A stretch of DNA of 64,000 nt from NCBI RefSeq assembly GCF_024223415.1, contig NZ_CP100500.1. One strand, 5' to 3'. Of this stretch, positions 5,324-47,781 are shown in pieces. The translations under genes and the position numbers were made by a program. The stretch is from Escherichia coli. GTDB taxonomy: Bacteria; Pseudomonadota; Gammaproteobacteria; Enterobacterales; Enterobacteriaceae. Each line of letters opens with the position of its first letter. Position 1 is the stretch's first letter. The notes beneath the pieces are model-generated. The model had not been told where the DNA came from, did no database searches, and was given only the letters and a program-made list of their open reading frames with translations.

Positions 5324-5659
5324 ATGGACGCTCCATATATTGAGTTATTTGCAGGCAGCCAGCAGGTATCCACGACGCTGGTACATTTTGCCGCTGATGC
5401 TGGCGTTATTCAGGAATTTACCCCGCTGATGCTGGCAGACAATGGCGAGTTTAAGGCGTGGGATGGTCAGGAATCTGGCAAAGCTGTTTATCTGACTTCG
5501 CACCCCGTGGACACGTCAAAGCAGAAATCAGCACAGTGTTACAAAACGGGGATATTCAATATTGCCGCCGTTAACTGGCCTGACAGCGTCGACACCGATG
5601 CGAAAAAATGCGCCGCCTTTGCGGGTTCCGGCGTATCCGTTCAGCCGCTGGCCCGATAA
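5324..5659 (+). CDS. head decoration protein, lambda gpD family
   Basis: 111 aa; TPLMLADNGEFKAWDG and YKTGIFN...AAFAGSGVSV match lambda gpD (TPLMLDTSSRKLVAWDG, YKSGTF...TAFAGTAISIV); same size as gpD. Confidence 0.7.
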   Translation: MDAPYIELFAGSQQVSTTLVHFAADAGVIQEFTPLMLADNGEFKAWDGQESGKAVYLTSHPVDTSKQKSAQCYKTGIFNIAAVNWPDSVDTDAKKCAAFAGSGVSVQPLAR

Positions 5660-5671
5660 GCAGGGGGAACG

Positions 5672-6085
5672 ATGGCAACGAATGAAAGTATCATGACGCT
5701 ACCGCTGGCGAGTAAATTTAAAGCCGAAGCGCGGGCAATGGCTGACAGAGGTTTATCAACCTACGAGGCCATACACCGACTAAACAAACTGGAAGAACAG
5801 GACAAGCCGCGCGCTGATGCGATTATGGCGCTTCATGAATCTGACGACTACCAGCCGCTGTTACGTGCAATGGCTAACGTGCCTTGTATCGATGTTGGTA
5901 CGGCTAAAAGCATCCTTAGCATGACCATAGAGCAGGAACGCCCGAAGGTTGCACCAGAGCTTACTTCAGCCTTTGAAAACTTTATGGACATGCACAGCCC
6001 GAAAGCCGTATCAGCTGGCATGGCATACGATGGCAGAACCCCGTGCGATGACGGCGACATCGACCGCATACTGAAAACCATCTGA
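5672..6085 (+). CDS. hypothetical protein (137 aa) of capsid/packaging module
   Basis: ORF in track with GGGGGA RBS; no family recognised. Confidence 0.45.
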   Translation: MATNESIMTLPLASKFKAEARAMADRGLSTYEAIHRLNKLEEQDKPRADAIMALHESDDYQPLLRAMANVPCIDVGTAKSILSMTIEQERPKVAPELTSAFENFMDMHSPKAVSAGMAYDGRTPCDDGDIDRILKTI

Positions 6086-6091
6086 GACAAG

Positions 6092-6115
6092 GCCGGAGAA
6101 ATCCGGCTTTTTTTG
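6092..6115 (+). terminator. rho-independent terminator
   Basis: GCCGGAGAAATCCGGC hairpin followed by TTTTTTT; same terminator module as at 3817. Confidence 0.6.
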
Positions 6116-6200
6116 CGGGTCCTTTCCGGCATGTGGACCCGTTACGGGGCGTCGACCTCGCACGTTTTCGCTATTTATGACGTTTTTCCGTGAAGGTGAC
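6110..6200 (+). other. lambda-type cos site 1 (cosQ-like, cosN GGGCGTCGACCT at 6147-6158, downstream segment)
   Basis: GGGTCCTTTCCGG...GTTACGGGGCGTCGACCTCGCACGTTTTCGCTATTTATGA closely matches the lambda cos region as I recall it (ACGGGTCCTTTCCGG...GTTACGGGGCGGCGACCTCGCGGGTTTTCGCTATTTATGAAAATTTTCCGG). Confidence 0.7.
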
Positions 6201-6247
6201 ACCACCACCACTTGATTAATATTTAACCATGTAGTTAAGGTAACATT

Positions 6248-6682
6248 ATGATTGATAAAGCTTGTTTTGTAAGTCAGCAGGAAATAGCTGAACATTTCAA
6301 TGTTAACAGAACCACTATTCGCGCATGGACCAAACAGGGGATGCCGTATCTTAATGCGGATCGCGGAAAGTCTGGCGGTTATCACATCGGGCATACATTG
6401 TTTTGGTATTCAGGTAAAAGCCATCTTCAGACCATCGGATATCACGTAGAAACCAGTGCGCTGGAAAAAATTATGTTTGCCAGGCTGCTTTCATCTGAGC
6501 GTGACGAGTACTCCAGTGAAGAAACAGAACATCGATTTGATGAAGGTTTGCAGATTTACGGCTATTCACCGGAAGATGTGAGCAAGGCACGAAATAAAAT
6601 GGCTGGCTTTCTGGCTGGGTGGCGTCATGCCGTAAGCGTTCGCCGTGCCAGCATGGAGCAATCAGCCGATACAGAACAGTAA
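6248..6682 (+). CDS. terminase small subunit, lambda Nu1-like (N-terminal winged HTH)
   Basis: 144 aa; QQEIAEHFNVNRTTIRAWTKQGMPYL...HTLFWYSGK aligns with lambda Nu1 KKQLADIFGASIRTIQNWQEQGMPVL...AVIKWYAER; about 90 bp downstream of cosN-like site as in lambda. Confidence 0.7.
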   Translation: MIDKACFVSQQEIAEHFNVNRTTIRAWTKQGMPYLNADRGKSGGYHIGHTLFWYSGKSHLQTIGYHVETSALEKIMFARLLSSERDEYSSEETEHRFDEGLQIYGYSPEDVSKARNKMAGFLAGWRHAVSVRRASMEQSADTEQ

Positions 6683-6729
6683 AGCCGATAACTTGTTAAT
6701 CACGCGCAGCAATGCGTGTGATTTTTGCA

Positions 6730-6850
6730 CACTTCCGGTTAACGGGTACGATGTCCGGTTTGTTTGTACATTTTTTGCACATGTCCGGTTCGCAGAAAGC
6801 ATGTTTTTATATTTTTCAGATAGTTAACTTGCAGAGAAACCGGACATGGA
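6730..6850. repeat. repeated TGTCCGGTT motifs (putative cosB-like terminase small-subunit binding sites)
   Basis: CACTTCCGGTT (6732), GATGTCCGGTT (6759), CATGTCCGGTT (6790) direct, and AACCGGACATG (6839) inverted. Confidence 0.5.
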
Positions 6851-6935
6851 TCCCGAAAAATTTTCATAAATAGTGAAAACGCGCGGGTTCGACGCCCCGT
6901 AACGGGCCATAATTCCAGAAGGACCCGACGACACC
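6830..6935 (-). other. lambda-type cos site 2, inverted relative to cos site 1
   Basis: Reverse complement reads GGGTCCTTCTGG...CCCGTTACGGGGCGTCGAACCCGCGCGTTTTCACTATTTATGAAAATTTTTCGGG, paralogous to site at 6110-6200 and to lambda cos. Confidence 0.65.
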
Positions 6936-6960
6936 AGACTATCAGAGCGATGGGGGCACA

Positions 6961-7242
6961 ATGACAGAAGCCGAACTACTGGGATTAATCCGCCGCGTTA
7001 CCGGAATCAGCCAGCAGCATGACGAACAGGCCACGCAGCCGGACAGCGTGACCGCCGAAAATTATGTGCGTGTTGTTGCGGAGGTGATGCGCCGTGACGG
7101 TATTGAGCTTAACGGCGTGGATATGCGCGACATACGGATCCGCGTTCTGGAAATGCTGGCATACCGTCGCCGCGTGCAGACGTACAGGGAAAAAGCAAAA
7201 ATAACGTACCACTGGAAGAAGCCGGAACGACTGCGTACGTAA
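6961..7242 (+). CDS. hypothetical protein (93 aa)
   Basis: ORF in track; weak RBS; last ORF of element before repeat-rich end. Confidence 0.3.
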   Translation: MTEAELLGLIRRVTGISQQHDEQATQPDSVTAENYVRVVAEVMRRDGIELNGVDMRDIRIRVLEMLAYRRRVQTYREKAKITYHWKKPERLRT

Positions 7243-7366
7243 TACGTACGGACATCGAGATAACGCAAAATTGCGCTGGCTACATCCCTCACATCTGAGG
7301 ACTGATAACAAGCTGCCTGAAAGACAGTCACAAACTACGAAATTTTCGCAGTTTAATTAATGGTCA

Positions 7367-7670
7367 GCTTAATCGCTAACCCGCTGATATTTTCGGAAAC
7401 ATCAATTTGAGGAAGTCGGCGCGGTAACTCGCTGAACTTAAAGCAAAGCGCAAAATTGCGCTGATTACTGGTTGGAATTGTTCCAGAGTGCAAATTTGCA
7501 CTCTGGCCTAACCCGTTGATTATTTCGAAAACCTGCAATGCAGGAAATCGGGGAAGTAAGCCTAAGCTATTGATTGTTTCGAAAACCACCATTGGGGGAT
7601 GTCGGGAAAGTAAGACTAACCCATTGATTCTTCCACAATCCTCAATGTGAGGAGGCCGGACATCGTGACA
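7367..7670. repeat. four imperfect direct repeats of about 54 bp (CTAACCCNTTGAT...GTAAG), three in tandem
   Basis: Units at about 7373-7427, 7507-7560, 7562-7615, 7616-7670 share CTAACCC(G/A)(C/T)TGAT ... TCGG..AAGTAAG and each contains a short internal inverted repeat. Confidence 0.6.
7483..7506. promoter_or_regulatory. 24-bp perfect palindrome CCAGAGTGCAAATTTGCACTCTGG
   Basis: Perfect dyad symmetry seen directly; nearby related inverted repeats GCGCAA-AA-TTGCGC at 7448-7461 and CGCAA-AA-TTGCG at 7264-7275. Confidence 0.5.
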
Positions 7671-7954
7671 GAGCGTGACAACCAGGTAACTAATCTCGCT
7701 GGTGGGCGTGATGTCGATATGGTGATCCCCATAACGGGTTATCCGTGATCATCCACCAGCTTCATGGCAGATAGCCGGAAAATGATAACGGTTAAGCAAA
7801 ACTGCCAGCAAATTTCCCTTTTGTTTGTTATTGTTCGTCGTTGTTCGTAGAGCTTCAACAAAATGTGTGGTCAGTTGTGTGGTCAGTTTTGAGGTTTTTA
7901 ATTCTTATGTGCTGAAAAACTTATTAATTATCAACTGATAACAAAAATTAGTAA

Positions 7955-8048
7955 GAAATACCCGTATCACCTGATCTGGATAATGCCAGCGTAGGGAAGT
8001 CACGGACCACCAGGTCATTGCTTCTTCACGTTATGGCAGGAGCAAACT
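7955..8048 (+). promoter_or_regulatory. 3' portion of thiM TPP riboswitch (thi-box) and expression platform; 5' half of aptamer absent
   Basis: GAAATACCCGTATCACCTGATCTGGATAATGCCAGCGTAGGGAAGT matches the well-studied E. coli thiM aptamer 3' half from memory; expected upstream GGGGTGCCCTTCTGCGTGAAGGCTGA is replaced by AT-rich unrelated sequence. Confidence 0.6.
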
Positions 8049-8837
8049 ATGCAAGTCGACCTGCTGGGTTCAGCGCAATCTGCGCACGCGTTACACCTTT
8101 TTCACCAACATTCCCCTCTTGTGCACTGCATGACCAATGATGTGGTGCAAACCTTTACCGCCAATACCTTGCTGGCGCTCGGTGCATCGCCAGCGATGGT
8201 TATCGAAACCGAAGAGGCCAGTCAGTTTGCGGCTATCGCCAGTGCCTTGTTGATTAACGTTGGCACACTGACGCAGCCACGCGCTCAGGCGATGCGTGCT
8301 GCCGTTGAGCAAGCAAAAAGCTCTCAAACACCCTGGACGCTTGATCCAGTAGCGGTGGGTGCGCTCGATTATCGCCGCCATTTTTGTCATGAACTTTTAT
8401 CTTTTAAACCGGCAGCGATACGTGGTAATGCTTCGGAAATCATGGCATTAGCTGGCATTGCTAATGGCGGACGGGGAGTGGATACCACTGACGCCGCAGC
8501 TAACGCGATACCCGCTGCACAAACACTGGCACGGGAAACTGGCGCAATCGTCGTGGTCACTGGCGAGATGGATTATGTTACCGATGGACATCGTATCATT
8601 GGTATTCACGGTGGTGATCCGTTAATGACCAAAGTGGTAGGAACTGGCTGTGCATTATCGGCGGTTGTCGCTGCCTGCTGTGCGTTACCAGGCGATACGC
8701 TGGAAAATGTCGCATCTGCCTGTCACTGGATGAAACAAGCCGGAGAACGCGCAGTCGCCAGAAGCGAGGGGCCAGGCAGTTTTGTTCCACATTTCCTTGA
8801 TGCGCTCTGGCAATTGACGCAGGAGGTGCAGGCATGA
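8049..8837 (+). CDS. thiM: hydroxyethylthiazole kinase
   Basis: 262 aa ORF, recognised ThiM sequence; overlaps thiD start. Confidence 0.95.
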
Positions 8838-9634
8838 AACGAATTAACGCTCTGACGATTGCCGGTACTGATCCGAGTGGTGGTGCGGGGATTCAGGCCG
8901 ATCTTAAAACCTTCTCGGCACTTGGCGCTTATGGTTGCTCAGTTATTACTGCACTGGTGGCGCAAAATACCCGTGGCGTACAGTCGGTGTATCGCATTGA
9001 GCCTGATTTTGTCGCCGCCCAGCTCGATTCGGTGTTCAGCGATGTGCGAATCGATACCACTAAAATCGGTATGCTGGCGGAAACCGATATTGTTGAAGCG
9101 GTGGCAGAACGGTTGCAACGTTATCAGATCCAAAACGTGGTACTCGACACCGTTATGCTGGCAAAAAGCGGCGACCCGCTGCTTTCACCTTCGGCGGTTG
9201 CTACGCTGCGCAGTCGATTATTGCCACAGGTTTCATTAATAACGCCAAACTTGCCCGAAGCTGCCGCCTTGCTCGACGCGCCACACGCGCGCACCGAACA
9301 GGAAATGCTGGAACAAGGGCGATCGCTGTTGGCGATGGGCTGTGGCGCAGTGCTAATGAAAGGTGGTCATCTGGATGATGAGCAAAGCCCGGACTGGCTG
9401 TTTACCCGCGAGGGTGAACAACGGTTTACCGCACCGCGCATTATGACCAAAAACACCCACGGCACTGGTTGTACACTCTCTGCGGCGTTGGCTGCACTAC
9501 GCCCGCGCCATACAAACTGGGCTGACACCGTACAGGAGGCAAAAAGCTGGCTTTCATCGGCGTTAGCCCAGGCCGACACGCTGGAAGTTGGTCACGGTAT
9601 TGGTCCGGTTCACCACTTCCACGCCTGGTGGTGA
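8834..9634 (+). CDS. thiD: hydroxymethylpyrimidine / phosphomethylpyrimidine kinase
   Basis: 266 aa ORF, recognised ThiD. Confidence 0.95.
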
Positions 9635-37439: not shown

Positions 37440-37669
37440 CGTTAAGAGTTTCTCTTCCTGAAACGTTTCGCGGAATGATACTAGTGTAGCCAGCCAATAA
37501 GGGAGAAAAATGGAGGAATTATGAAACACTATCGGGAATCGTCTGAATGGCGGGCACATTTGCGAGCACGCATCCAGTAATAACACAGGAAACTATTTTA
37601 TCTACGCGTTAGCGATAGACTGCATACAGGGCGAAAGGAGGTAAGCCGCAGATTTCAGCCGGATGCTGA

Positions 37670-37810
37670 AACGGGAAAGCCCCTCCCGAGGAAGGGGCCT
37701 TAAATAAGGAAAGGGTCATGATGAAGCTACTCATCATCGTGGTGCTCTTAGTGATTAGCTACCCAGCATACTAAGACTACCAGGGCGGGGGAAACCCCGC
37801 TCTACCCTCA
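37670..37810 (-). ncRNA. Sib-family antisense sRNA (antitoxin), copy 1, approximate bounds
   Basis: On minus strand: -35 TTGACA (rc of 37839-37844) and -10-like CATACT downstream of ibs stop; hairpin GCCCCTCCCGAGGAAGGGGC at 37679-37699 as terminator; bounds inferred. Confidence 0.45.
37718..37774 (+). CDS. Ibs-family type I toxin peptide (MMKLLIIVVLLVISYPAY)
   Basis: 18-codon hydrophobic ORF with AAGG RBS, below six-frame track length cutoff; resembles IbsA-E peptides. Confidence 0.7.
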   Translation: MMKLLIIVVLLVISYPAY

Positions 37811-37997
37811 CTCCTGAAAGTATGCCTTCACGATAAGATTGTCAATCCGCAGGATTTGCCGTCTGCGATCCTGCCAGCAAAAATTCTTTGCGAGACGTTA
37901 CGCAATAATCACACTGGAAACTATTTTATCTGCAAGTCAGCGATAGACTAAGTGCATGGCGAAAGGAGGTAAGCCGACGATTTCAGCGGGACGCTGA

Positions 37998-38138
37998 AAC
38001 GGGAAAGCCCCTCCCGAGGAAGGGGCCTTAAATAAGGAAAGGGTCATGATGAAGCTACTCATCATCGTGGTGCTCTTAGTCATAAGCTTCCCCGCTTACT
38101 AAGACTACCAGGGCGGGGGAAACCCCGCTCTACCCTCA
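37998..38138 (-). ncRNA. Sib-family antisense sRNA, copy 2, approximate bounds
   Basis: Same promoter and hairpin elements as copy 1 within repeat 2. Confidence 0.45.
38046..38102 (+). CDS. Ibs-family type I toxin peptide (MMKLLIIVVLLVISFPAY)
   Basis: Second repeat copy, 18-codon hydrophobic ORF. Confidence 0.7.
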   Translation: MMKLLIIVVLLVISFPAY

Positions 38139-38327
38139 CTCCTGAAAGTATGCCTTCACGATAAGATTGTCAATCCGCAGGCTTTGTAGTCTGCGATCCT
38201 GCCAGCAAATATTCTTTGCGAGTCGTTACGCAATAATCACAGAGGAAACTATTTTATTCACGCGTTAGCGATAGCCTGCATTCAGGGCGAAAGGAGGTAA
38301 GCCGATGATTTCAGCGGGACGCTGAAA

Positions 38328-38470
38328 CGGGAAAGCCTCTCCCGGAGAAGAGGGCTTTTAATAAGGAAAGGGTTATGATGAAGCACGTCATCATACTGGT
38401 GATACTCTTAGTGATTAGCTTCCAGGCTTACTAAGAACACCAGGGGGAGGGGGAAACCTCTCCCTAACCC
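38328..38470 (-). ncRNA. Sib-family antisense sRNA, copy 3, approximate bounds
   Basis: Divergent copy; hairpin AGCCTCTCCCGGAGAAGAGGGCTTT at about 38335-38358. Confidence 0.4.
38375..38434 (+). CDS. Ibs-family type I toxin peptide (MMKHVIILVILLVISFQAY)
   Basis: Third, more divergent repeat copy, 19-codon hydrophobic ORF. Confidence 0.7.
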   Translation: MMKHVIILVILLVISFQAY

Positions 38471-38654
38471 TCACTCCTGAAATTATGTCACTCCGCCCTT
38501 AGTGTCAATCGACGGCTCTCCGTTCTTGCGAGGCGAATAGCAAAATTTTCTGCGCCGCCGGGCCTAATTCTGAAAGTTTCTTCGTTTGCTCTTATTTCAT
38601 TATTGCAGTCGGTATGATACCGGACCTCAATAATTCTCTAAGAAAGGATTTCTT

Positions 38655-39314
38655 ATGAGCGAACAAATCACGTTTGCCACCAGCGATTTTGCCAGTAACC
38701 CGGAACCACGTTGCCCCTGCATTTTGCTGCTGGATGTTTCTAGCTCGATGAGCGGCAGACCCATTAATGAACTTAACGCCGGATTGGTTACCTTTCGCGA
38801 TGAGCTGCTTGCCGATTCGCTGGCCTTAAAAAGAGTGGAACTCGGTATTGTGACGTTCGGCCCGGTGCATGTGGAACAACCCTTTACCAGCGCCGCTAAC
38901 TTTTTCCCGCCCATCCTGTTTGCCCAGGGGGATACGCCAATGGGGGCCGCCATTACCAAAGCCCTGGATATGGTTGAAGAGAGGAAACGTGAGTACCGCG
39001 CAAATGGTATTTCGTATTATCGCCCGTGGATTTTCCTGATCACCGATGGCGCTCCAACCGATGAGTGGCAGGCTGCCGCCAACAAAGTGTTTCAGGGGGA
39101 AGAAGATAAGAAATTTGCCTTCTTTTCCATCGCTGTTCAGGGGGCGGATATGAAGACGCTGGCACAAATCAGCGTTCGTCAGCCTTTGCCTCTGCAAGGA
39201 TTACAATTCCGTGAACTGTTTAGCTGGTTATCCAGTTCGCTGCGTTCGGTTTCCCGCTCCACGCCGGGAACGGAAGTTGTGCTGGAAGCGCCAAAAGGCT
39301 GGACGTCAGTGTGA
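38655..39314 (+). CDS. yegL: von Willebrand factor A (vWA / TerY-like) domain protein
   Basis: 219 aa; MIDAS motif [11 protein letters not shown]; overlaps start of next gene. Confidence 0.85.
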
Positions 39315-40072
39315 GCTGGCGTCTGGTTTATGCATCCGCTGTTGGAACGTCGCACATTAGCGCTGATTTACCTTGTCAGGATGCCTGCCAGATGCAGGTT
39401 GCCTGGTTAAACGATCAGCAACCATTACTGGTGATGTTTCTTGCTGATGGTGCAGGCAGCGTCTCGCAGGGTGGCGAAGGCGCGATGCTCGCCGTCAATG
39501 AAGCGATGGCTTATATGTCGCAAAAAGTGCAGGGTGGGGAATTGGGGCTTAATGATATCCTCGCCACGGATATTGTGCTGACTATTCGTCAGCGACTTTT
39601 TGCCGAGGCGGAAGCCAAAGAATTAGCAGTTCGCGATTTTGCCTGCACGTTTCTGGGATTGATTTCATCGGCTAATGGCACCTTGATTATGCAGATTGGC
39701 GATGGCGGCGTGGTGGTGGATTTTGGTCACGGTCTGCAATTGCCGCTTACGCCGATGGTGGGTGAATATGACAATATGACGCACTTCATTACCGATGAAG
39801 ATGCCGTTTCCAGACTGGAAACTTTCACCAGCACTGAGCGTGTGCATAAAGTTGCAGCATTTACGGATGGTATCCAGCGACTGGCGTTAAATATGCTGGA
39901 TAATTCTCCTCATGTACCTTTCTTTACCCCGTTTTTCAATGGACTGGCGTCAGCAACGCAGGAACAACTCGATTTATTACCTGAATTGTTAAAGCAGTTT
40001 TTGTCCAGCCCGGCGGTAAACGAGCGTACGGATGATGATAAAACGTTGGCACTGGCGCTGTGGTTACCATGA
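39311..40072 (+). CDS. yegK: PP2C-family Ser/Thr protein phosphatase
   Basis: 253 aa; PP2C-like acidic metal-binding motifs ([14 protein letters not shown]); overlaps kinase start. Confidence 0.8.
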
Positions 40073-42009
40073 AACCCACTTTATATACTGCTACTGGTGA
40101 GTGCGTTACGCCAGGCCGTGAACTGGGCAAAGGCGGTGAAGGCGCGGTTTATGATATCAATGAGTTTGTCGATAGCGTCGCCAAGATTTATCACACGCCG
40201 CCACCCGCCTTAAAACAGGACAAACTTGCCTTTATGGCTGCGACAGCTGACGCGCAATTGTTGAATTATGTCGCCTGGCCGCAGGCAACGCTTCACGGTG
40301 GACGAGGCGGAAAAGTTATCGGTTTTATGATGCCAAAAGTTTCTGGTAAAGAACCGATTCATATGATCTATAGCCCGGCACATCGTCGTCAACGTTACCC
40401 TCATTGTGCGTGGGATTTTCTACTCTATGTTGCGCGCAATATTGCTTCATCTTTTGCTACGGTTCACGAGCACGGGCACGTCGTGGGTGACGTAAACCAG
40501 AACAGTTTTATGGTAGGTCGCGACAGCAAAGTGGTACTGATTGATAGCGACTCCTTTCAGATTAACGCCAATGGCACACTGCATTTATGCGAAGTCGGCG
40601 TGTCGCATTTTACGCCGCCAGAGCTACAAACCTTGTCGTCATTTGTCGGCTTTGAACGCACAGAAAATCACGATAATTTTGGCCTTGCGTTGCTGATTTT
40701 TCACGTCTTGTTTGGTGGCCGGCATCCTTATTCTGGTGTGCCGCTTATCTCTGATGCGGGTAATGCGCTGGAGACGGATATTACCCATTTCCGTTATGCC
40801 TACGCGTCAGATAATCAGCGACGTGGTTTAAAACCGCCGCCACGATCGATTCCGCTATCGATGTTACCGAGTGATGTTGAAGCCATGTTTCAGCAGGCAT
40901 TCACGGAAAGTGGCGTGGCAACCGGGCGTCCGACGGCTAAAGCGTGGGTAGCGGCACTTGATTCTCTGCGCCAACAGTTAAAGAAATGTCCCGTTTCGGC
41001 AATGCATGTTTATCCCGCTCATTTGACCGACTGCCCGTGGTGTGCGCTGGATAATCAAGGCGTTATCTATTTTATTGATCTCGGCGAAGAGGTCATTACC
41101 ACCGGCGGGGATTTTGTGCTGGCAAAAGTCTGGGCGATGGTGATGGCGTCAGTAGCACCGCCAGCATTGCAACTGCCATTACCCGATCATTTCCAACCGA
41201 CTGGCAGGCCGCTTCCTTTAGGCCTGTTACGGCGCGAATACATCATTCTGCTTGAGATCGCACTGTCAGCATTATCGCTGCTGCTTTGCGGCCTTCAGGC
41301 AGAACCGCGTTATATTATTTTGGTTCCTGTGCTGGCGGCTATCTGGATTATTGGCAGTCTGACAAGCAAAGCGTACAAAGCAGAAGTTCAGCAACGCCGT
41401 GAGGCATTTAATCGTGCGAAAATGGACTATGACCATTTAGTCCGCCAGATCCAGCAGGTAGGCGGCCTGGAAGGTTTTATCGCCAAACGGACGATGCTCG
41501 AAAAAATGAAGGACGAAATTCTCGGGTTACCGGAAGAAGAGAAACGCGCTCTGGCAGCACTTCATGACACTGCAAGGGAACGGCAGAAGCAGAAGTTTCT
41601 GGAGGGATTTTTTATTGATGTTGCCTCTATTCCCGGCGTTGGCCCTGCGCGTAAAGCGGCGTTACGGTCTTTTGGTATTGAAACAGCCGCAGATGTTACC
41701 CGTCGTGGCGTTAAGCAAGTGAAAGGGTTTGGCGACCATCTGACCCAGGCGGTTATCGACTGGAAAGCGAGCTGTGAACGCCGTTTTGTGTTCAGGCCGA
41801 ATGAAGCGATAACGCCAGCAGACAGACAAGCGGTAATGGCGAAAATGACCGCCAAACGACATCGGCTGGAATCGACGTTGACTGTCGGCGCGACAGAGTT
41901 GCAGCGATTCCGCCTTCATGCTCCAGCACGGACCATGCCGTTGATGGAACCTTTACGTCAGGCGGCAGAAAAACTGGCTCAGGCGCAGGCAGATTTAAGC
42001 CGCTGCTGA
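40060..42009 (+). CDS. yegI: Ser/Thr protein kinase-like protein with C-terminal helix-hairpin-helix region
   Basis: 649 aa; glycine-rich loop GKGGEGAVY, VAKIY lysine, HGHVVGDVNQNS catalytic loop, predicted TM segments, HhH-like GxG repeats near C-terminus. Confidence 0.85.
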   Translation: MVTMKPTLYTATGECVTPGRELGKGGEGAVYDINEFVDSVAKIYHTPPPALKQDKLAFMAATADAQLLNYVAWPQATLHGGRGGKVIGFMMPKVSGKEPIHMIYSPAHRRQRYPHCAWDFLLYVARNIASSFATVHEHGHVVGDVNQNSFMVGRDSKVVLIDSDSFQINANGTLHLCEVGVSHFTPPELQTLSSFVGFERTENHDNFGLALLIFHVLFGGRHPYSGVPLISDAGNALETDITHFRYAYASDNQRRGLKPPPRSIPLSMLPSDVEAMFQQAFTESGVATGRPTAKAWVAALDSLRQQLKKCPVSAMHVYPAHLTDCPWCALDNQGVIYFIDLGEEVITTGGDFVLAKVWAMVMASVAPPALQLPLPDHFQPTGRPLPLGLLRREYIILLEIALSALSLLLCGLQAEPRYIILVPVLAAIWIIGSLTSKAYKAEVQQRREAFNRAKMDYDHLVRQIQQVGGLEGFIAKRTMLEKMKDEILGLPEEEKRALAALHDTARERQKQKFLEGFFIDVASIPGVGPARKAALRSFGIETAADVTRRGVKQVKGFGDHLTQAVIDWKASCERRFVFRPNEAITPADRQAVMAKMTAKRHRLESTLTVGATELQRFRLHAPARTMPLMEPLRQAAEKLAQAQADLSRC

Positions 42010-42020
42010 GCCATTTTCTT

Positions 42021-43373
42021 TTAACGAAACACCACTTCCGCCCAGCGTGCCAGCCCGGCGGTGACGGAGCCAAAGTCATCGCCGCCTGCAATCGGAATTC
42101 CCGGCAACTGTTCTGCCAGCGCTTTTTTAATCAGCGGCGAACGGGCGCTACCGCCGGTCAGGTAGATAACGTCCGGTTTTTCCTGGGCGTTATCCAGGGC
42201 CAGTTGCACCTGTTCCAGAATCCGCGCCAGTGGCTGGCTGAGGGCGCTTTCCAGCCCTTGCTGGCTAATCAGCGTAGCCAGTTCATCGCTGATAAACGGC
42301 AGTGAGGCGCGGGTTTCCGCTACGCTTGAAAGAGCAATTTTGCACTCTTCTGCGCTACGCACCAGGCGATAGCTTAAACGCTGACGCCAGACTTTCTGTA
42401 GCAGGGCCACTTTTTCCGGTTCGCGGGCATCGCGTACCAGATCGTTAAGCAGACGACCGTTGGCACTACTGTAGAAATCACTCTGCGCAGGTACGTCGTT
42501 GATGGCAACCGCATTCCACCACGGCAGAATCGGCAGGGCGATGCCTTTTTCGGTTTCGCCACCCATGCCCAGTAACGGCATCAGGTTTTTAAACGCCAGT
42601 GCGATGTCCAGATCGTTACCGCCAATACGGCAACCACTGTGACCCAGCAGGCTGGCTTCACGATCGAGACGCGAACGCCACTGCGGCCCCATCAGCAGCA
42701 ATGAACAGTCAGTCGTACCACCGCCGATATCCACCACCAGCACCCGTTTTTCTTCCTGCAAGGTGGCTTCGTAATCCAGCCCAGCCGCGACCGGCTCGTA
42801 CTGGAATACCACGTCCCTGAATCCGGCACGCTTCGCCGCGCGTTCCAGAATCCCTTGCGCCTGGGCGTTTGCTTCATCGCCGCCCAGCCCCTGGAAGTTG
42901 ATCGGGCGACCAATCACCGCCTGAGTAATCGCTTCTGGCAGCTGCGCCTGCGCCTGCTGGCGAATGTGCAACATCATTGCGCAGACCAGATCCTCAAACA
43001 GCGCTACCTGCTGCGGTTTTAAGCCGCTGGCACCGAGGAACGATTTTGGTGATTTCACAAACCACACTTCTTCTGGATCATCAATGTACTGTGCCAGTGA
43101 GGAAAGACCGAACTGCACGCTTTTCGCCGTAACATCGATATCTTCTTCGCGGTTATAACGAATCGCCCGACGTAACAGCGCCTGCGTTTCATCGTCGTCT
43201 GCCGGAACATCATGATGGCGGTACAGCCATTCACTTACTGCTTCACGCGTTGGCGCGCAAAGCATTGAAGGCAGCAGCGTGCTGTCGTTTTCCATTTTCA
43301 GTAATTGCGGTTTACCGTCACGCATGACCGCCACTGAACAGTTTGCTGTACCGTAATCAAAACCAATAAACAC
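42021..43373 (-). CDS. yegD: Hsp70/actin-like ATPase chaperone
   Basis: 450 aa; Hsp70-family NBD motifs (IGFDYGTAN, DIGGGTTD). Confidence 0.9.
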   Translation of the reverse strand: MFIGFDYGTANCSVAVMRDGKPQLLKMENDSTLLPSMLCAPTREAVSEWLYRHHDVPADDDETQALLRRAIRYNREEDIDVTAKSVQFGLSSLAQYIDDPEEVWFVKSPKSFLGASGLKPQQVALFEDLVCAMMLHIRQQAQAQLPEAITQAVIGRPINFQGLGGDEANAQAQGILERAAKRAGFRDVVFQYEPVAAGLDYEATLQEEKRVLVVDIGGGTTDCSLLLMGPQWRSRLDREASLLGHSGCRIGGNDLDIALAFKNLMPLLGMGGETEKGIALPILPWWNAVAINDVPAQSDFYSSANGRLLNDLVRDAREPEKVALLQKVWRQRLSYRLVRSAEECKIALSSVAETRASLPFISDELATLISQQGLESALSQPLARILEQVQLALDNAQEKPDVIYLTGGSARSPLIKKALAEQLPGIPIAGGDDFGSVTAGLARWAEVVFR

Positions 43374-44463: not shown

Positions 44464-47400
44464 TCAGTTAATCGCGAAATAACTACTATTCACCAGCAAA
44501 TCCAGCGGTTGGGCATCGGCAATCACCTCACCATAAATCAGATCGACGCCGATGCCAGAAAGCGTATCCATCACTAAGGGTAAAACGACTGGCCCGGCGA
44601 TGGTTTTCATCCCGAGTCGCTGAGCGTGCCCCTGAATAATCGTAATCAGCATCTCATCCATCAAATTACCCTGCACGTTGGCGCATAACTCACCATCAAG
44701 TAGCAGGTAATCTGCCATATTCGCTTTCAGCGAGTTGAAGATTTGCAGATCGCGGCCCACCTGGCTGAGCACTATCCGACATCCCGCCAGCCGCAGTTTT
44801 TGCACGCTTTCTGCGTGATCTAAAATCGCTTCAGCCGGAATAATCAGATGTAATAACCGTGGTGGTAGAGGGCTATTTTCCAGCTGCTCAAGCAGATCAT
44901 TCACCAGCGTGGCGCTACTCAAACCGGCAACGGAAAGGGGGAGGGAGATGCTTATGCCTTTACTGGCAACCGCTTTTGCGGCCTGCTGGAAAAATTCGTG
45001 GAATACCCGGCGGTCAAGAGCATGGCTAAGCGCCGGATCGCTGAAGCTACGACGAAATGTTTGTTCATCAATAATCTCGCCTTCGCAACTCCAGAGCTTA
45101 AGTGAAATCAGCCACAAATTACGCGCTTCCGGGATCCGTGGCGAAGCGACACCGTGGGCGAGCATCATCAACTGATTCTCTTTAATCATCCGCCACTGTT
45201 CATCAAGCGACATCGCCGCCCGTTCGCTATGTGCGGCAGCTTGCTGCGGTTCGTAAACCGTCACCCGGCCCCGGCCACCATTTTTGGAGGCATAACAGGC
45301 GATATCAGCCTGCGACATCACTTCTGCCGCCTGATGATTGTTGTCATCAATCAAGGTAATCCCGGCACTGGCACCTACCCGATGCACACGGCCTTCCCAT
45401 ATAAAGTGATAGTCATTCACGGCACTGATAATGCGTGTAGCGATAAAACGCGCGCTTTCAACATTACAGTCTGGTAGCAGCAGACCAAATTCATCCCCAC
45501 CGAGTCGCGCCAGCACGTCGCTGGAACGCAGCATACTCAGCATTAACGACGCCAGTTCGCGCAGCAAAGCGTCACCCGCCGCATGCCCGGCGCTGTCATT
45601 CACCGCTTTAAAGCGATCAAGATCGATAAACACCAGGGCATGTCGCTGATGTGTACTGTTTACCGTTTGCAGCAGGATACGCAGTTGTTTCTCAAAACTG
45701 GCGCGGTTGGCGAGATGCGTCAGTGCATCATGGGAGGCGCTGTAGCTCAGCTGGCGCAGCATTTTGCGTGATTCGGTAACGTCCTGAATCACCAGAACCG
45801 AACCAATATTGCTGCCGTCCAGAGTACTTAACGGCGTAATACAGTAATGCACGTCGTAACTGCCGCCGCTCCGACAGTGCAACACCACATCTTGCTCGAT
45901 CGCGGAACGTGAGGTGTCGGCACTGTAAATGTTCTCCATTAATGGTCCGTTGTCGCCAAAAGTAATATGCAACACCGTCAGGAGCGGAACACCTAACGCT
46001 TCTTCCTGCGTCCAGCCGCTCATCTTCTCCGCCACTGGATTCATAAAGGTAATTTTCATCGCCATATCAATACAGACCACGGCTTCACCGATGGAATCAA
46101 GCGTAATGTGCAGGCGCTCTTTTTCCTGAAACAATGCCTCGTTAAGCTGTTTAACCTCAGTCATATCCATATTAATGCCGAGCAGGCGTTCGACTTCGCC
46201 TTCTTTATTCAGTACCCGGTTGGCGAGGGCGCGGATATGGCGGATGCCATCTTTCACGGCAATGCGAAATTCCAGCTTAAAGGGCGAGCGTGATTGCAAC
46301 GAATCACGAATCACTTTTTCGGCGTGTTGGCGATCTTCCGGCAATACACACTCGTACCACACCTGCCAGTTCGGTTTGATATGCGGAGGAATTTCATACA
46401 GCTCGAACATCCGCTTATCCCAGCTAAAAATATTCGGCTTCAACTCCCACTCCCAGATGCCAATCCCGCCCGCTTCGTTAGCCAGCGTGATGCGCTCCAT
46501 CAGTTGCTGATTGACCTGTTCGGTGCGTTTTAGCTCGTTAATGTCTTCAATCTGAGCGATAAAATAGAGCGGCGTGCCATCCGTGTGGCGCACCAGTGAG
46601 ACGGCAAGCAACGCCCAGACAACATCGCCATTGCGGTTGTAGTAGCGTTTTTCCATTGAATAGGTGTTTATTTCACCGCTTATCAGCTTTTCAACCTGTT
46701 GGAGATCTTTATTGAGATCCTCCGGCCAGGTCAGTTGCTGAAAGGTGAGTCCGCGCAGCTCTTCCTGACTGTACCCGAGAAACTGGCAGAGCGCTTTGTT
46801 GGTTTGCAGCCATTGTCCCTCGGTGCCCACTAACGCCATACCGATAGCGGAATATTCCATCGCGTTCCGAAAGTGGGTTTCGCTTTCGGAAATGTGTTTG
46901 CGTTCCGCACGAAAGGCATACATCACCATGGTCATGATGTTGGCGGGCAGCAGGATCAGCAAAAACGGTAGCCACGGCATATGGCTCATCAGGTACGTAC
47001 GCGGCGTAGCAAGCAGGGAGGGATCCGCGGCCATCATCAGCGACACCATCATCACCGTGGTAAGGAAGATCAAAAAGGCTTCCATTCGTGGCAGACGCAC
47101 GGCGCTCCACATCAACAGCACAATAATGAAAGTAAAAGGCCACGGCAGATACAGCATCGAAAGCCAGCTTAACGTCAGTGTGATGGCTAACGTGAGCAGC
47201 GACTCAAAAAGCAACCGTGGGTTGCGATGGCGCAGCAGATAGTGTGGTTTAAATAACAATCCCAGCGGCACCAGTGCCAGAGCGCCGATGGATTCTGACA
47301 GTACCCATATCAAAAATGCCCTGAGAGGATCGTCTCCGGGCGTCAGCAGGACAACCAGAACACCCCCCAACAGAGGCGGAACAATGGCGCTGCCGAGTGC

Positions 47401-47781
47401 CAGACGCAGCCAGTCAGCCAGATTTTGCAAGGGGTTATACCACGGCAGCAATTTACGTAGCAGCACTGCCCCGACCACGGCTTCAACAATATTGATGGTC
47501 GTCCAGGTCATGTTCAGCGAGCTGGTGGAAAAAAGCAGGATGGATGCGGCGATATTTCCCAGCGAACAGCTCAGCGCAATTCCCGGCCACATGCGCCCGG
47601 CATGGCGATAAAACGCCACCATCATGATGGACGTCGGGAACCACAGTGGGGCGAGTTGGGTGCCAAACTGCGAAAGCTCAAGCGAGAAAAGGGTAAAGAT
47701 AAACGAGACTAAACCTAAACTGACCAGGTGAAGCAGCGGGTGGGGCAGGGCAATTAATACATGCTGTGATTGTTTGCTCAT
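44464..47781 (-). CDS. dgcE: multidomain diguanylate cyclase (MASE1 - PAS - GGDEF - EAL)
   Basis: 1105 aa; N-terminal polytopic domain, PAS region, GGDEF motif (RLGGDEFGLL), C-terminal EAL-like domain. Confidence 0.9.
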   Translation of the reverse strand: MSKQSQHVLIALPHPLLHLVSLGLVSFIFTLFSLELSQFGTQLAPLWFPTSIMMVAFYRHAGRMWPGIALSCSLGNIAASILLFSTSSLNMTWTTINIVEAVVGAVLLRKLLPWYNPLQNLADWLRLALGSAIVPPLLGGVLVVLLTPGDDPLRAFLIWVLSESIGALALVPLGLLFKPHYLLRHRNPRLLFESLLTLAITLTLSWLSMLYLPWPFTFIIVLLMWSAVRLPRMEAFLIFLTTVMMVSLMMAADPSLLATPRTYLMSHMPWLPFLLILLPANIMTMVMYAFRAERKHISESETHFRNAMEYSAIGMALVGTEGQWLQTNKALCQFLGYSQEELRGLTFQQLTWPEDLNKDLQQVEKLISGEINTYSMEKRYYNRNGDVVWALLAVSLVRHTDGTPLYFIAQIEDINELKRTEQVNQQLMERITLANEAGGIGIWEWELKPNIFSWDKRMFELYEIPPHIKPNWQVWYECVLPEDRQHAEKVIRDSLQSRSPFKLEFRIAVKDGIRHIRALANRVLNKEGEVERLLGINMDMTEVKQLNEALFQEKERLHITLDSIGEAVVCIDMAMKITFMNPVAEKMSGWTQEEALGVPLLTVLHITFGDNGPLMENIYSADTSRSAIEQDVVLHCRSGGSYDVHYCITPLSTLDGSNIGSVLVIQDVTESRKMLRQLSYSASHDALTHLANRASFEKQLRILLQTVNSTHQRHALVFIDLDRFKAVNDSAGHAAGDALLRELASLMLSMLRSSDVLARLGGDEFGLLLPDCNVESARFIATRIISAVNDYHFIWEGRVHRVGASAGITLIDDNNHQAAEVMSQADIACYASKNGGRGRVTVYEPQQAAAHSERAAMSLDEQWRMIKENQLMMLAHGVASPRIPEARNLWLISLKLWSCEGEIIDEQTFRRSFSDPALSHALDRRVFHEFFQQAAKAVASKGISISLPLSVAGLSSATLVNDLLEQLENSPLPPRLLHLIIPAEAILDHAESVQKLRLAGCRIVLSQVGRDLQIFNSLKANMADYLLLDGELCANVQGNLMDEMLITIIQGHAQRLGMKTIAGPVVLPLVMDTLSGIGVDLIYGEVIADAQPLDLLVNSSYFAIN

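Follow-up and report, generated by a model that had tools for sequence, protein, structure and literature searches.

The yegL-pphC-yegI operon of Escherichia coli: a vWA protein, PP2C phosphatase and membrane kinase triad related to the TerY-P class

The triad and the closest described systems

Metal or tellurite sensing is the role originally proposed for TerY-P triads, cassettes of a vWA protein, a PP2C phosphatase and a Ser/Thr kinase. Here we analyse a triad of this kind, the yegL-pphC-yegI operon of Escherichia coli, which lies on the + strand at positions 38655–42009 of a stretch of 64 000 nucleotides from contig NZ_CP100500.1 (this whole stretch is called the window). The prediction of TerY-P triads goes back to Anantharaman et al. 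(2012), and Gao et al. (2020) showed that TerY-P-like triads defend against T7-like phages, both as given in papers citing them (PMC11090510, PMC7699616).

The E. coli genes have been described before. YegK (PphC) is an active Mn-dependent PP2C-like phosphatase (Rajagopalan, Nagle and Dworkin, J Bacteriol 2018; bioRxiv 10.1101/303594) and YegI an active, autophosphorylating, Mn2+-preferring kinase (Rajagopalan and Dworkin, FEBS Lett 2020; bioRxiv 10.1101/819920). Autophosphorylated YegI is dephosphorylated by PphC; the D46N variant of PphC is inactive and is itself phosphorylated by YegI (bioRxiv 10.1101/303594). No material difference was found between the published genes and those of the window, where the 646-residue YegI and the ATGA overlap at its start represent the REL606/O157-type arrangement; this overlap of pphC and yegI has been reported for REL606 and O157:H7 (bioRxiv 10.1101/819920). 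The initial annotation, made from the sequence, thus re-identified annotated and published genes, and is a correct reading of an operon that was already known and partly characterised. New with respect to the parts of the two preprints that were consulted are a zinc-knuckle-like motif, structural support for a helix-hairpin-helix domain, (HhH)2, a conserved tail of YegL and the wide distribution of the triad.

We consider it highly probable that the operon, in its ancestral form without yegJ, is a self-contained Ser/Thr phospho-switch of the TerY-P class. The segment 38655–42009 holds three open reading frames (ORFs) on the + strand, encoding 219, 253 and 646–649 residues:

38655–39314, + strand: yegL, 219-residue cytosolic vWA protein of the TerY type (ORF, RefSeq name, Pfam)
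39311–39314, + strand: GTGA overlap of the yegL stop and the GTG start of pphC, junction reading TCAGTGTGAGC
39311–40072, + strand: pphC (yegK), 253-residue PP2C-like Ser/Thr phosphatase (RefSeq name, Pfam)
40069–40072, + strand: ATGA overlap of the pphC stop and the ATG start of yegI, junction reading TTACCATGAAA
40069–42009, + strand: yegI, 646-residue inner-membrane Ser/Thr kinase (ORF, RefSeq name, AlphaFold2 model)

The overlapping reading frames noted in the initial annotation are therefore two 4-nt stop/start overlaps, which favour co-translation of the three proteins in fixed proportions. The longest-ORF rule would place the start of yegI at GTG 40060 (649 residues, 13-nt overlap). This start is unlikely; RefSeq and the published work both use ATG 40069 (646 residues).

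Strain 181.1 (NZ_CP059907), which differs from the window by one base over 9.7 kb, carries a triad segment of 100% identity with the RefSeq names yegL, pphC and yegI. A megablast comparison of segment 38655–42009 with 5426 complete E. coli genomes revealed the triad locus in 5417 (99.8%), and the ratios of non-synonymous to synonymous divergence (dN/dS) between the window and K-12 are 0.06, 0.19 and 0.12 for yegL, pphC and yegI, similar to those of the flanking genes. The low ratios and the near-universal presence argue that the genes are maintained by selection. By these sequence comparisons they are long, conserved and under purifying selection, and chance ORFs are ruled out.

The same data bear on the idea that the operon is a remnant, silenced in evolution, whose enzymes keep some activity in vitro but no longer serve a function. 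Several observations fit this idea: PphC is listed at 0.004 ppm (PMC9841429), expression or transcription of the locus was not detected by the published groups (bioRxiv 10.1101/303594, 10.1101/819920), H-NS is marked at the yegI-yegJ intergenic region of K-12, and yegJ splits the operon in strains of the K-12 type. However, dN/dS is at the low level of the flanking housekeeping genes, each of the three frames in the window is intact, the locus is retained almost throughout the species, and the catalytic and MIDAS (metal-ion-dependent adhesion site) residues are invariant. We find a remnant very hard to credit.

In K-12 strains, yegJ sits between pphC and yegI (bioRxiv 10.1101/819920). In the window, neither the ORF list nor alignment with K-12 revealed a yegJ ORF between these genes, as the initial annotation had stated. 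This absence is no oddity but the majority state: yegJ DNA is present in 1933 of the 5426 complete genomes, so that the yegJ-free arrangement is the commoner one in E. coli. It also looks ancestral, because pphC and yegI abut or overlap in Escherichia whittamii, in another Escherichia species and in Klebsiella spallanzanii.

The triad was compared with its nearest described relatives, the triads of plasmid ter clusters. A search with YegL gave 2331 plasmid records with TerY-type matches, most of which carry ter clusters. On an IncHI2 plasmid the order is terW, vWA, TerD-family gene, vWA, TerY-C vWA, PP2C and kinase; this triad has the same order of vWA, PP2C and kinase as yegL-pphC-yegI. YegL is homologous to the TerY-C vWA protein (BLASTP E = 7e-20), PphC shares the PP2C motifs of the plasmid phosphatase (BLASTP E = 1e-5), and YegI matches the plasmid kinase over the C-lobe and zinc ribbon (BLASTP E = 3e-5), the C307–C325 knuckle of YegI aligning with the C...CPYC element of the ter-cluster TerY-P kinase at the same position. 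The proteins differ in size and additional domains. YegL (219 residues) lacks the TerY-C metal-binding domain of the plasmid protein (346 residues), PphC (253 residues) has half the size of the 545-residue IncHI2 phosphatase, and the membrane hairpin, coiled coil and (HhH)2 of YegI are additions relative to the 499-residue kinase. The gene order vWA, PP2C, kinase on one strand holds in all 75 related loci with DNA left upstream (loci were compared in the 80 best-scoring genomes of a scan with one genome per species). Conserved order and homology to the ter-cluster triad together support the assignment to the TerY-P architectural class, in line with the TerY-phosphatase-kinase architecture proposed initially.

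The homology of YegL to TerY of tellurite-resistance clusters suggests one possible function, that of a metal- or tellurite-type stress sensor in which the MIDAS site of YegL would read a divalent cation or an oxyanion-induced metal imbalance. The site is intact and invariant, and YegI and PphC are both Mn2+-dependent (bioRxiv 10.1101/819920, 10.1101/303594). Yet no ter genes (terZABCDE, terW, TerD family) were found close to the triad, either in the window or among the sampled relatives, and the metal-binding domain is the part of the plasmid protein that YegL lacks. We regard this function as improbable.

The TerY-P system of Gao et al. (2020) is also a stand-alone cassette of vWA protein, PP2C and Ser/Thr kinase in defence islands. 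Its kinase is described as carrying a C-terminal OB fold (PMC11090510), whereas YegI has the membrane hairpin and (HhH)2 instead. The TerY-P models of PADLOC-DB 2.0 gave no match to the triad, neither at E ≤ 0.01 nor at E ≤ 10, and they also miss three distant triads; membership in PADLOC TerY-P was rejected on these grounds. YegL reached the PADLOC ‘TerY’ profile with E = 0.013 in a partial region, PphC had no match, and YegI matched generic kinase regions of PD-T4-6 and MkoA only. Since the models miss the triad and the OB fold is replaced by hairpin and (HhH)2, the YegI-type triad is a separate branch of the TerY-P class. Combinations of vWA protein, PP2C and zinc-ribbon kinase are described in PMC11090510. 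YegI likewise keeps a Cys/His knuckle after the kinase domain, but none of the CnuB, CnuC, CnuH and CnuE genes of those systems was found close to the triad, either in the window or at the loci sampled.

Domain structure of YegL, PphC and YegI

The following features were assigned within the proteins:

38733–38747, + strand: MIDAS motif of YegL, D27-V-S29-S-S31, with T94 and D131 as further MIDAS residues
39228–39272, + strand: Ser/Thr-rich C-terminal segment of YegL, residues 192–206, candidate phospho-acceptor
40069–40968, + strand: Hanks-type kinase domain of YegI, residues 1–300, with K39, D141, the D159-S-D161 loop and S162
40987–41043, + strand: zinc-knuckle-like motif of YegI, C307-x5-H313-x8-C322-P-W-C325, directly after the kinase domain
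41233–41373, + strand: transmembrane hairpin of YegI, residues ~389–409 and ~415–435 with the loop QAEPR (hydropathy, model helices)
41611–41793, + strand: predicted (HhH)2 domain of YegI, residues ~515–575, with hairpins G523-V-G525 and G553-F-G555

YegL matches the Pfam families VWA (E = 1e-8) and VWA_2 (E = 1e-6). The residues D27-x-S29-x-S31, T94 and D131 are invariant or nearly so in homologue alignments, one of them comprising 74 sequences, in agreement with the MIDAS-containing vWA protein predicted at the outset. Across the 74 bacterial and archaeal homologues the median identity is 64.5%, compared with ~37% for the kinase, which marks YegL as the most conserved component of the triad. 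The same alignment revealed a conserved N-terminal segment and a C-terminal WLSxSxxSVSRSxPGTEV segment. The consensus of the latter, WLS-S--svSrS-PGtev, is kept across Bacteria and Archaea, and its core, W-[IL]-[ST]-[AS]-S...SRS, also aligns with plasmid TerY (BLASTP). We take this segment to be a candidate phospho-acceptor.

For PphC, the Pfam family PP2C_2 was matched with E = 3.2e-50, model positions 1–204 of 209 being aligned, which bears out the PP2C-like phosphatase. Residue D46 lies within the invariant ADGAGS motif.

A Pfam scan of YegI from the window gave no Pkinase match, just HHH_5 with E = 0.0025. In a family alignment of 78 sequences (~35–60% identity), 64 members do match Pkinase, and the AlphaFold2 model of YegI (pLDDT 94.1, pTM 0.81) matches BRAF, Aurora B and PknB (Foldseek E ~1e-7, target-normalised TM-score 0.65–0.73). 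Family and model comparison thus assign to YegI a Hanks-type kinase fold despite the lack of its own Pfam match, and the eukaryotic-like kinase of the initial annotation was correctly recognised, as were its membrane segments. The canonical HRD...N loop and the DFG motif are absent: the window protein has V-G-D141-V-N-Q-N-S and D159-S-D161, and the family consensus reads GDVNQGN and DCDSFQ. K39, D141, N143, D159, D161 and S162 are invariant in the 78 sequences. Correspondingly, the K39D and D141N variants are inactive and a change of DSD to DFG abolishes activity (bioRxiv 10.1101/819920). Autophosphorylation occurs on serines with second-order kinetics (bioRxiv 10.1101/819920), which points to a YegI dimer. 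The in vitro assays that the initial annotation had proposed are therefore available in part, namely for the kinase activity of YegI and the phosphatase activity of PphC, and kinase-dead-like behaviour of YegI is already excluded by the published activity.

The Cys/His motif behind the kinase domain looks like a zinc knuckle and may bind metal; C307, H313, C322, W324 and C325 are invariant in the 78 sequences. The two membrane helices show Kyte–Doolittle peaks above 1.6 and are helical in the AlphaFold2 model. Both results agree with the published topology, a two-pass inner-membrane protein in which PhoA–LacZ fusions place both termini in the cytoplasm (bioRxiv 10.1101/819920).

A coiled coil connects the membrane hairpin to the C-terminal domain, for which the initial annotation had predicted HhH repeats. 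The motifs GVG (523–525) and GFG (553–555) are conserved in the family, and HHH_5 is matched at E ≤ 0.1 by 24 of the 78 members. When a profile of this region was compared with the PDB, all matches were HhH proteins (UvrC, REV1, Pol IV, RAD51, L32e; E 0.015–0.1). Residues 498–585 were also modelled separately (pLDDT 90), and this model can be overlaid at 1.4–2.8 Å on the (HhH)2 domains of Dmc1/Rad51, Hjm, RNA polymerase alpha-CTD, LigA and DisA; the Foldseek values are not significant (E ≥ 0.43), as is common for so small a domain. The single tests are weak, but together they are concordant and predict an (HhH)2 domain. Sequence searches of the PDB with each triad protein gave nothing significant, the best match being the kinase NleH1 (E = 0.043). 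The NCBIfam identities proposed for the triad proteins (cobaltochelatase, Stp1, lanthionine synthetase kinases) were rejected, the matches being sub-threshold only.

In its general layout YegI resembles DisA, which also has a catalytic domain, a long helical spine and a C-terminal HhH domain. Fold comparison of the C-terminal domain of YegI gave DisA as one of the matches, with a probability of only 0.4–0.6. The analogy is functional only; the diadenylate cyclase domain of DisA is unrelated to the kinase domain, and DisA is a soluble, octameric protein.

Distribution, gene neighbourhoods and proposed function

Relatives of the triad were found in at least 511 species, and a library of representatives at 50% identity contained 3249 clusters at E ≤ 1e-30, most of them full length with ~640–660 residues. 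The species range comprises Burkholderiales, Pseudomonas, Desulfocapsa, Planctomycetota, Acidobacteria, Frankia, Georgenia, Clostridiales, Synergistaceae, cyanobacteria and the archaeon Methanoregula. Among the best 80 species genomes of the scan, Enterobacterales are represented by Escherichia and Klebsiella spallanzanii only.

At 63 of 73 related loci, the vWA and PP2C genes overlap by 4 nt. Clustering of the flanking ORFs revealed no conserved fourth gene across the 80 loci; the largest non-triad clusters (eight loci) reflect Burkholderia/Paraburkholderia synteny or antisense shadow ORFs. On the basis of the constant gene order, the overlap and the lack of a conserved fourth gene, the triad behaves as a single functional unit as judged from the loci compared. 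For the last of these reasons yegD and alkA were rejected as triad partners.

Triads are also found on plasmids of Agrobacterium and Rhizobium and on Pseudomonas megaplasmids such as pQBR103. On pQBR103 and pZXPA-20-602k (~5580–8950), the triad is located among genes for an S24 peptidase and a Y-family polymerase, RNase HII, HU and TraR/DksA. A helix-hairpin-helix domain is also annotated in a second large protein, encoded ~4–7 kb downstream of the triad on Pseudomonas megaplasmids. Complete triads were detected in metagenome-assembled genomes of Methanoregula and other Methanomicrobiales, with kinases ~35% identical to YegI and vWA proteins matching a YegL-family profile with E ~1e-95 to 1e-99; these archaeal triads imply transfer of the cassette between domains of life. 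In the INPHARED phage genomes, no YegI relative was found beyond one partial kinase match. Three PHROGs profiles, phrog_28389, phrog_37072 and phrog_37888, match YegL, PphC and YegI over their full length and score close to the maximum; they probably represent E. coli chromosomal genes that were included in prophage predictions.

Defence or restriction genes are neighbours of the triad in roughly 40% of the sampled related loci. Strong defence neighbours were found in three of three long Pfam-annotated contigs. According to Pfam, the neighbours are an SNase, a McrA-like protein, BrxR/WYL and JetB in Piscinibacter; AbiH, a KAP NTPase and a Tn7-like transposon in Chromobacterium; and GmrSD, SymE and type I restriction-modification in Klebsiella spallanzanii. 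On short metagenome contigs, Mrr_cat and PLDc_2 lie beside the triad. The nearest large neighbours of 17 further loci were tested with PADLOC, no background rate being computed. Matches were strong in 4–5 loci, weak in two and absent in 10; the strong ones are Gabija GajA/GajB, Wadjet JetC with WYL, a type II methyltransferase, PDC-S01 and a Fic-type protein. The link of the triad with defence islands is real but partial. In the window, no ter or restriction modules lie beside the triad; it is flanked by mdtA, three ibs/sib modules, yegD and alkA.

These neighbourhoods raise the possibility that the operon is a cryptic anti-phage or anti-plasmid module, possibly acting by abortive infection, and represents an (HhH)2/membrane branch of TerY-P that became fixed in Escherichia. 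The validated activity of TerY-P-like triads against T7-like phages is consistent with such a role, as are the strong defence neighbours. The patchy distribution, which looks horizontally transferred, extends to Archaea and to conjugative plasmids and megaplasmids, and within the Enterobacterales of the best-scoring genomes it is confined to Escherichia and Klebsiella spallanzanii. Further, overproduced YegL and YegI each raise endogenous DNA damage (bioRxiv 10.1101/354589), and yegI mutations recur in the long-term evolution experiment (bioRxiv 10.1101/303594). On the other hand, the operon is core in E. coli, PADLOC fails to recognise the triad, many loci have no defence neighbours, and the literature searched holds neither a link of yegL-pphC-yegI to phage nor a report of a phage-protection test. 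An immune role may be considered quite possible, if tentative.

The DNA damage upon overproduction could also be read as a sign of DNA-integrity or damage stress signalling for the host, in which a DisA-like HhH sensor on a helical stalk would regulate catalysis. In its fold, the (HhH)2 domain is similar to DNA-binding modules of Rad51/Dmc1, UvrC, LigA and DisA, alkA is located nearby in E. coli, and Y-family polymerase, S24 peptidase, RNase HII and HU accompany the triad on the Pseudomonas megaplasmids. The operon is, moreover, stably maintained in E. coli under purifying selection. However, the adjacency of alkA and yegD is not conserved outside Escherichia, the restriction to Escherichia and Klebsiella spallanzanii among the Enterobacterales of the best 80 genomes does not favour a host function, and no expression of the operon could be detected under standard conditions (bioRxiv 10.1101/303594). 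We consider this role somewhat doubtful.

The phospho-switch reading accommodates these data in the following mechanism. YegI autophosphorylates on activation-loop serines and PphC strips the phosphates and thereby resets the kinase; this loop is published. The cytoplasmic (HhH)2, held near the membrane on its coiled-coil stalk, may bind DNA irrespective of sequence and would couple a DNA-related cue, possibly incoming or damaged DNA at the membrane, to dimerisation and activation of YegI. YegL would act as adaptor or substrate, phosphorylation of its Ser/Thr-rich C-terminal helix or tail switching the state of the MIDAS site and ligand binding. The output would most probably be a conflict or stress response (anti-phage, anti-mobile-DNA or growth arrest). 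The operon may be kept silent under laboratory conditions, as suggested by the PphC level of 0.004 ppm and the lack of detectable transcription.

The link to conflict and DNA is based on the defence neighbours in relatives, the DNA damage upon overproduction of YegL or YegI and the phage defence by TerY-P-like triads. Several points weigh against this picture. The YegI substrates reported in the literature are YegI itself and PphC only, YegL phosphorylation being a candidate step. In E. coli the operon belongs to the core gene set at a fixed chromosomal site, which is not typical of defence systems; in ~60% of the sampled relatives no defence neighbour could be recognised, and the PADLOC TerY-P models do not match. 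The net charge of the HhH domain is only ~+3, and DNA binding is a prediction.

A bolder version, which we think rather unlikely, makes the operon a silent member of a large TerY-P conflict branch (>3000 clusters at 50% identity in Bacteria, Archaea and megaplasmids) that defence-finding tools have missed. In this reading, a membrane kinase would detect foreign or damaged DNA via (HhH)2 and phosphorylate the C-terminal helix of YegL, and the switched MIDAS site would engage a universally conserved cellular target, thereby halting infection or growth.

E. coli has very few pairs of a Hanks-type kinase and a PP2C phosphatase, and the triad contains one of them. If the triad is a DNA-sensing defence or stress switch, it would offer a tractable entry point into the TerY-P class in a model organism, and it would mean that immune modules can also occur among the core loci of a species.

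Allele history and adjacent elements

Alignment of the window with K-12 BW25113 indicates that the yegJ segment of K-12 (~790 bp; BW25113 4660–5450 versus window 40060–40120) is a replacement, not a clean insertion. It swaps the last two codons of pphC (LP to AE) and approximately the first 15 codons of yegI. The resulting N-terminus of K-12 YegI, MKTNIKVFTSTGELTTL, differs from the window version, yet is recognisably related.

Synonymous divergence (dS) between the window and BW25113 is ~0.20 in yegL-pphC (window 38655–40072, BW25113 3256–4673) versus 0.02–0.05 in mdtA, yegI and yegD, and PphC differs by 18 amino acid changes. The dS values in yegL-pphC, far above those of mdtA, yegI and yegD, suggest that a divergent allele was brought in by recombination. 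The presence of yegJ does not strictly go with one allele class, because strain N1229 combines yegJ with a window-like allele (99.5% identity).

The gene series around the triad is mdtB and mdtA (− strand), three tandem Ibs/Sib modules, yegL-pphC-yegI (+), yegD (−), alkA (+) and dgcE (−). Scans of 37500–42200 for promoters and terminators gave counts not above those of shuffled sequence, and Rfam revealed no RNA family within the triad operon. Directly upstream of yegL, at 37559–38508, are three tandem repeats of 328 bp, each consisting of an Ibs toxin ORF (+ strand) and a full-length Sib antitoxin RNA (− strand; Rfam RF00113, 142–150 bits). The Sib RNAs are located at 37703–37845, 38031–38173 and 38360–38508 (− strand). 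K-12 BW25113 has just two Ibs/Sib copies at this site.

Downstream of the triad, at 42009–42021, the convergent stops of yegI (+) and yegD (−) are 11 bp apart, and the terminator scan found no terminator-like hairpin between them. For these reasons transcription of yegI or yegD may run into the other gene. yegD is induced by yegJ overexpression, as described in a 2026 paper. The gene dgcE (yegE; 44464–47781, − strand) is an uninterrupted ORF of 1105 residues in the window; in the near-identical strain 181.1, RefSeq lists it as a pseudogene with an internal stop.

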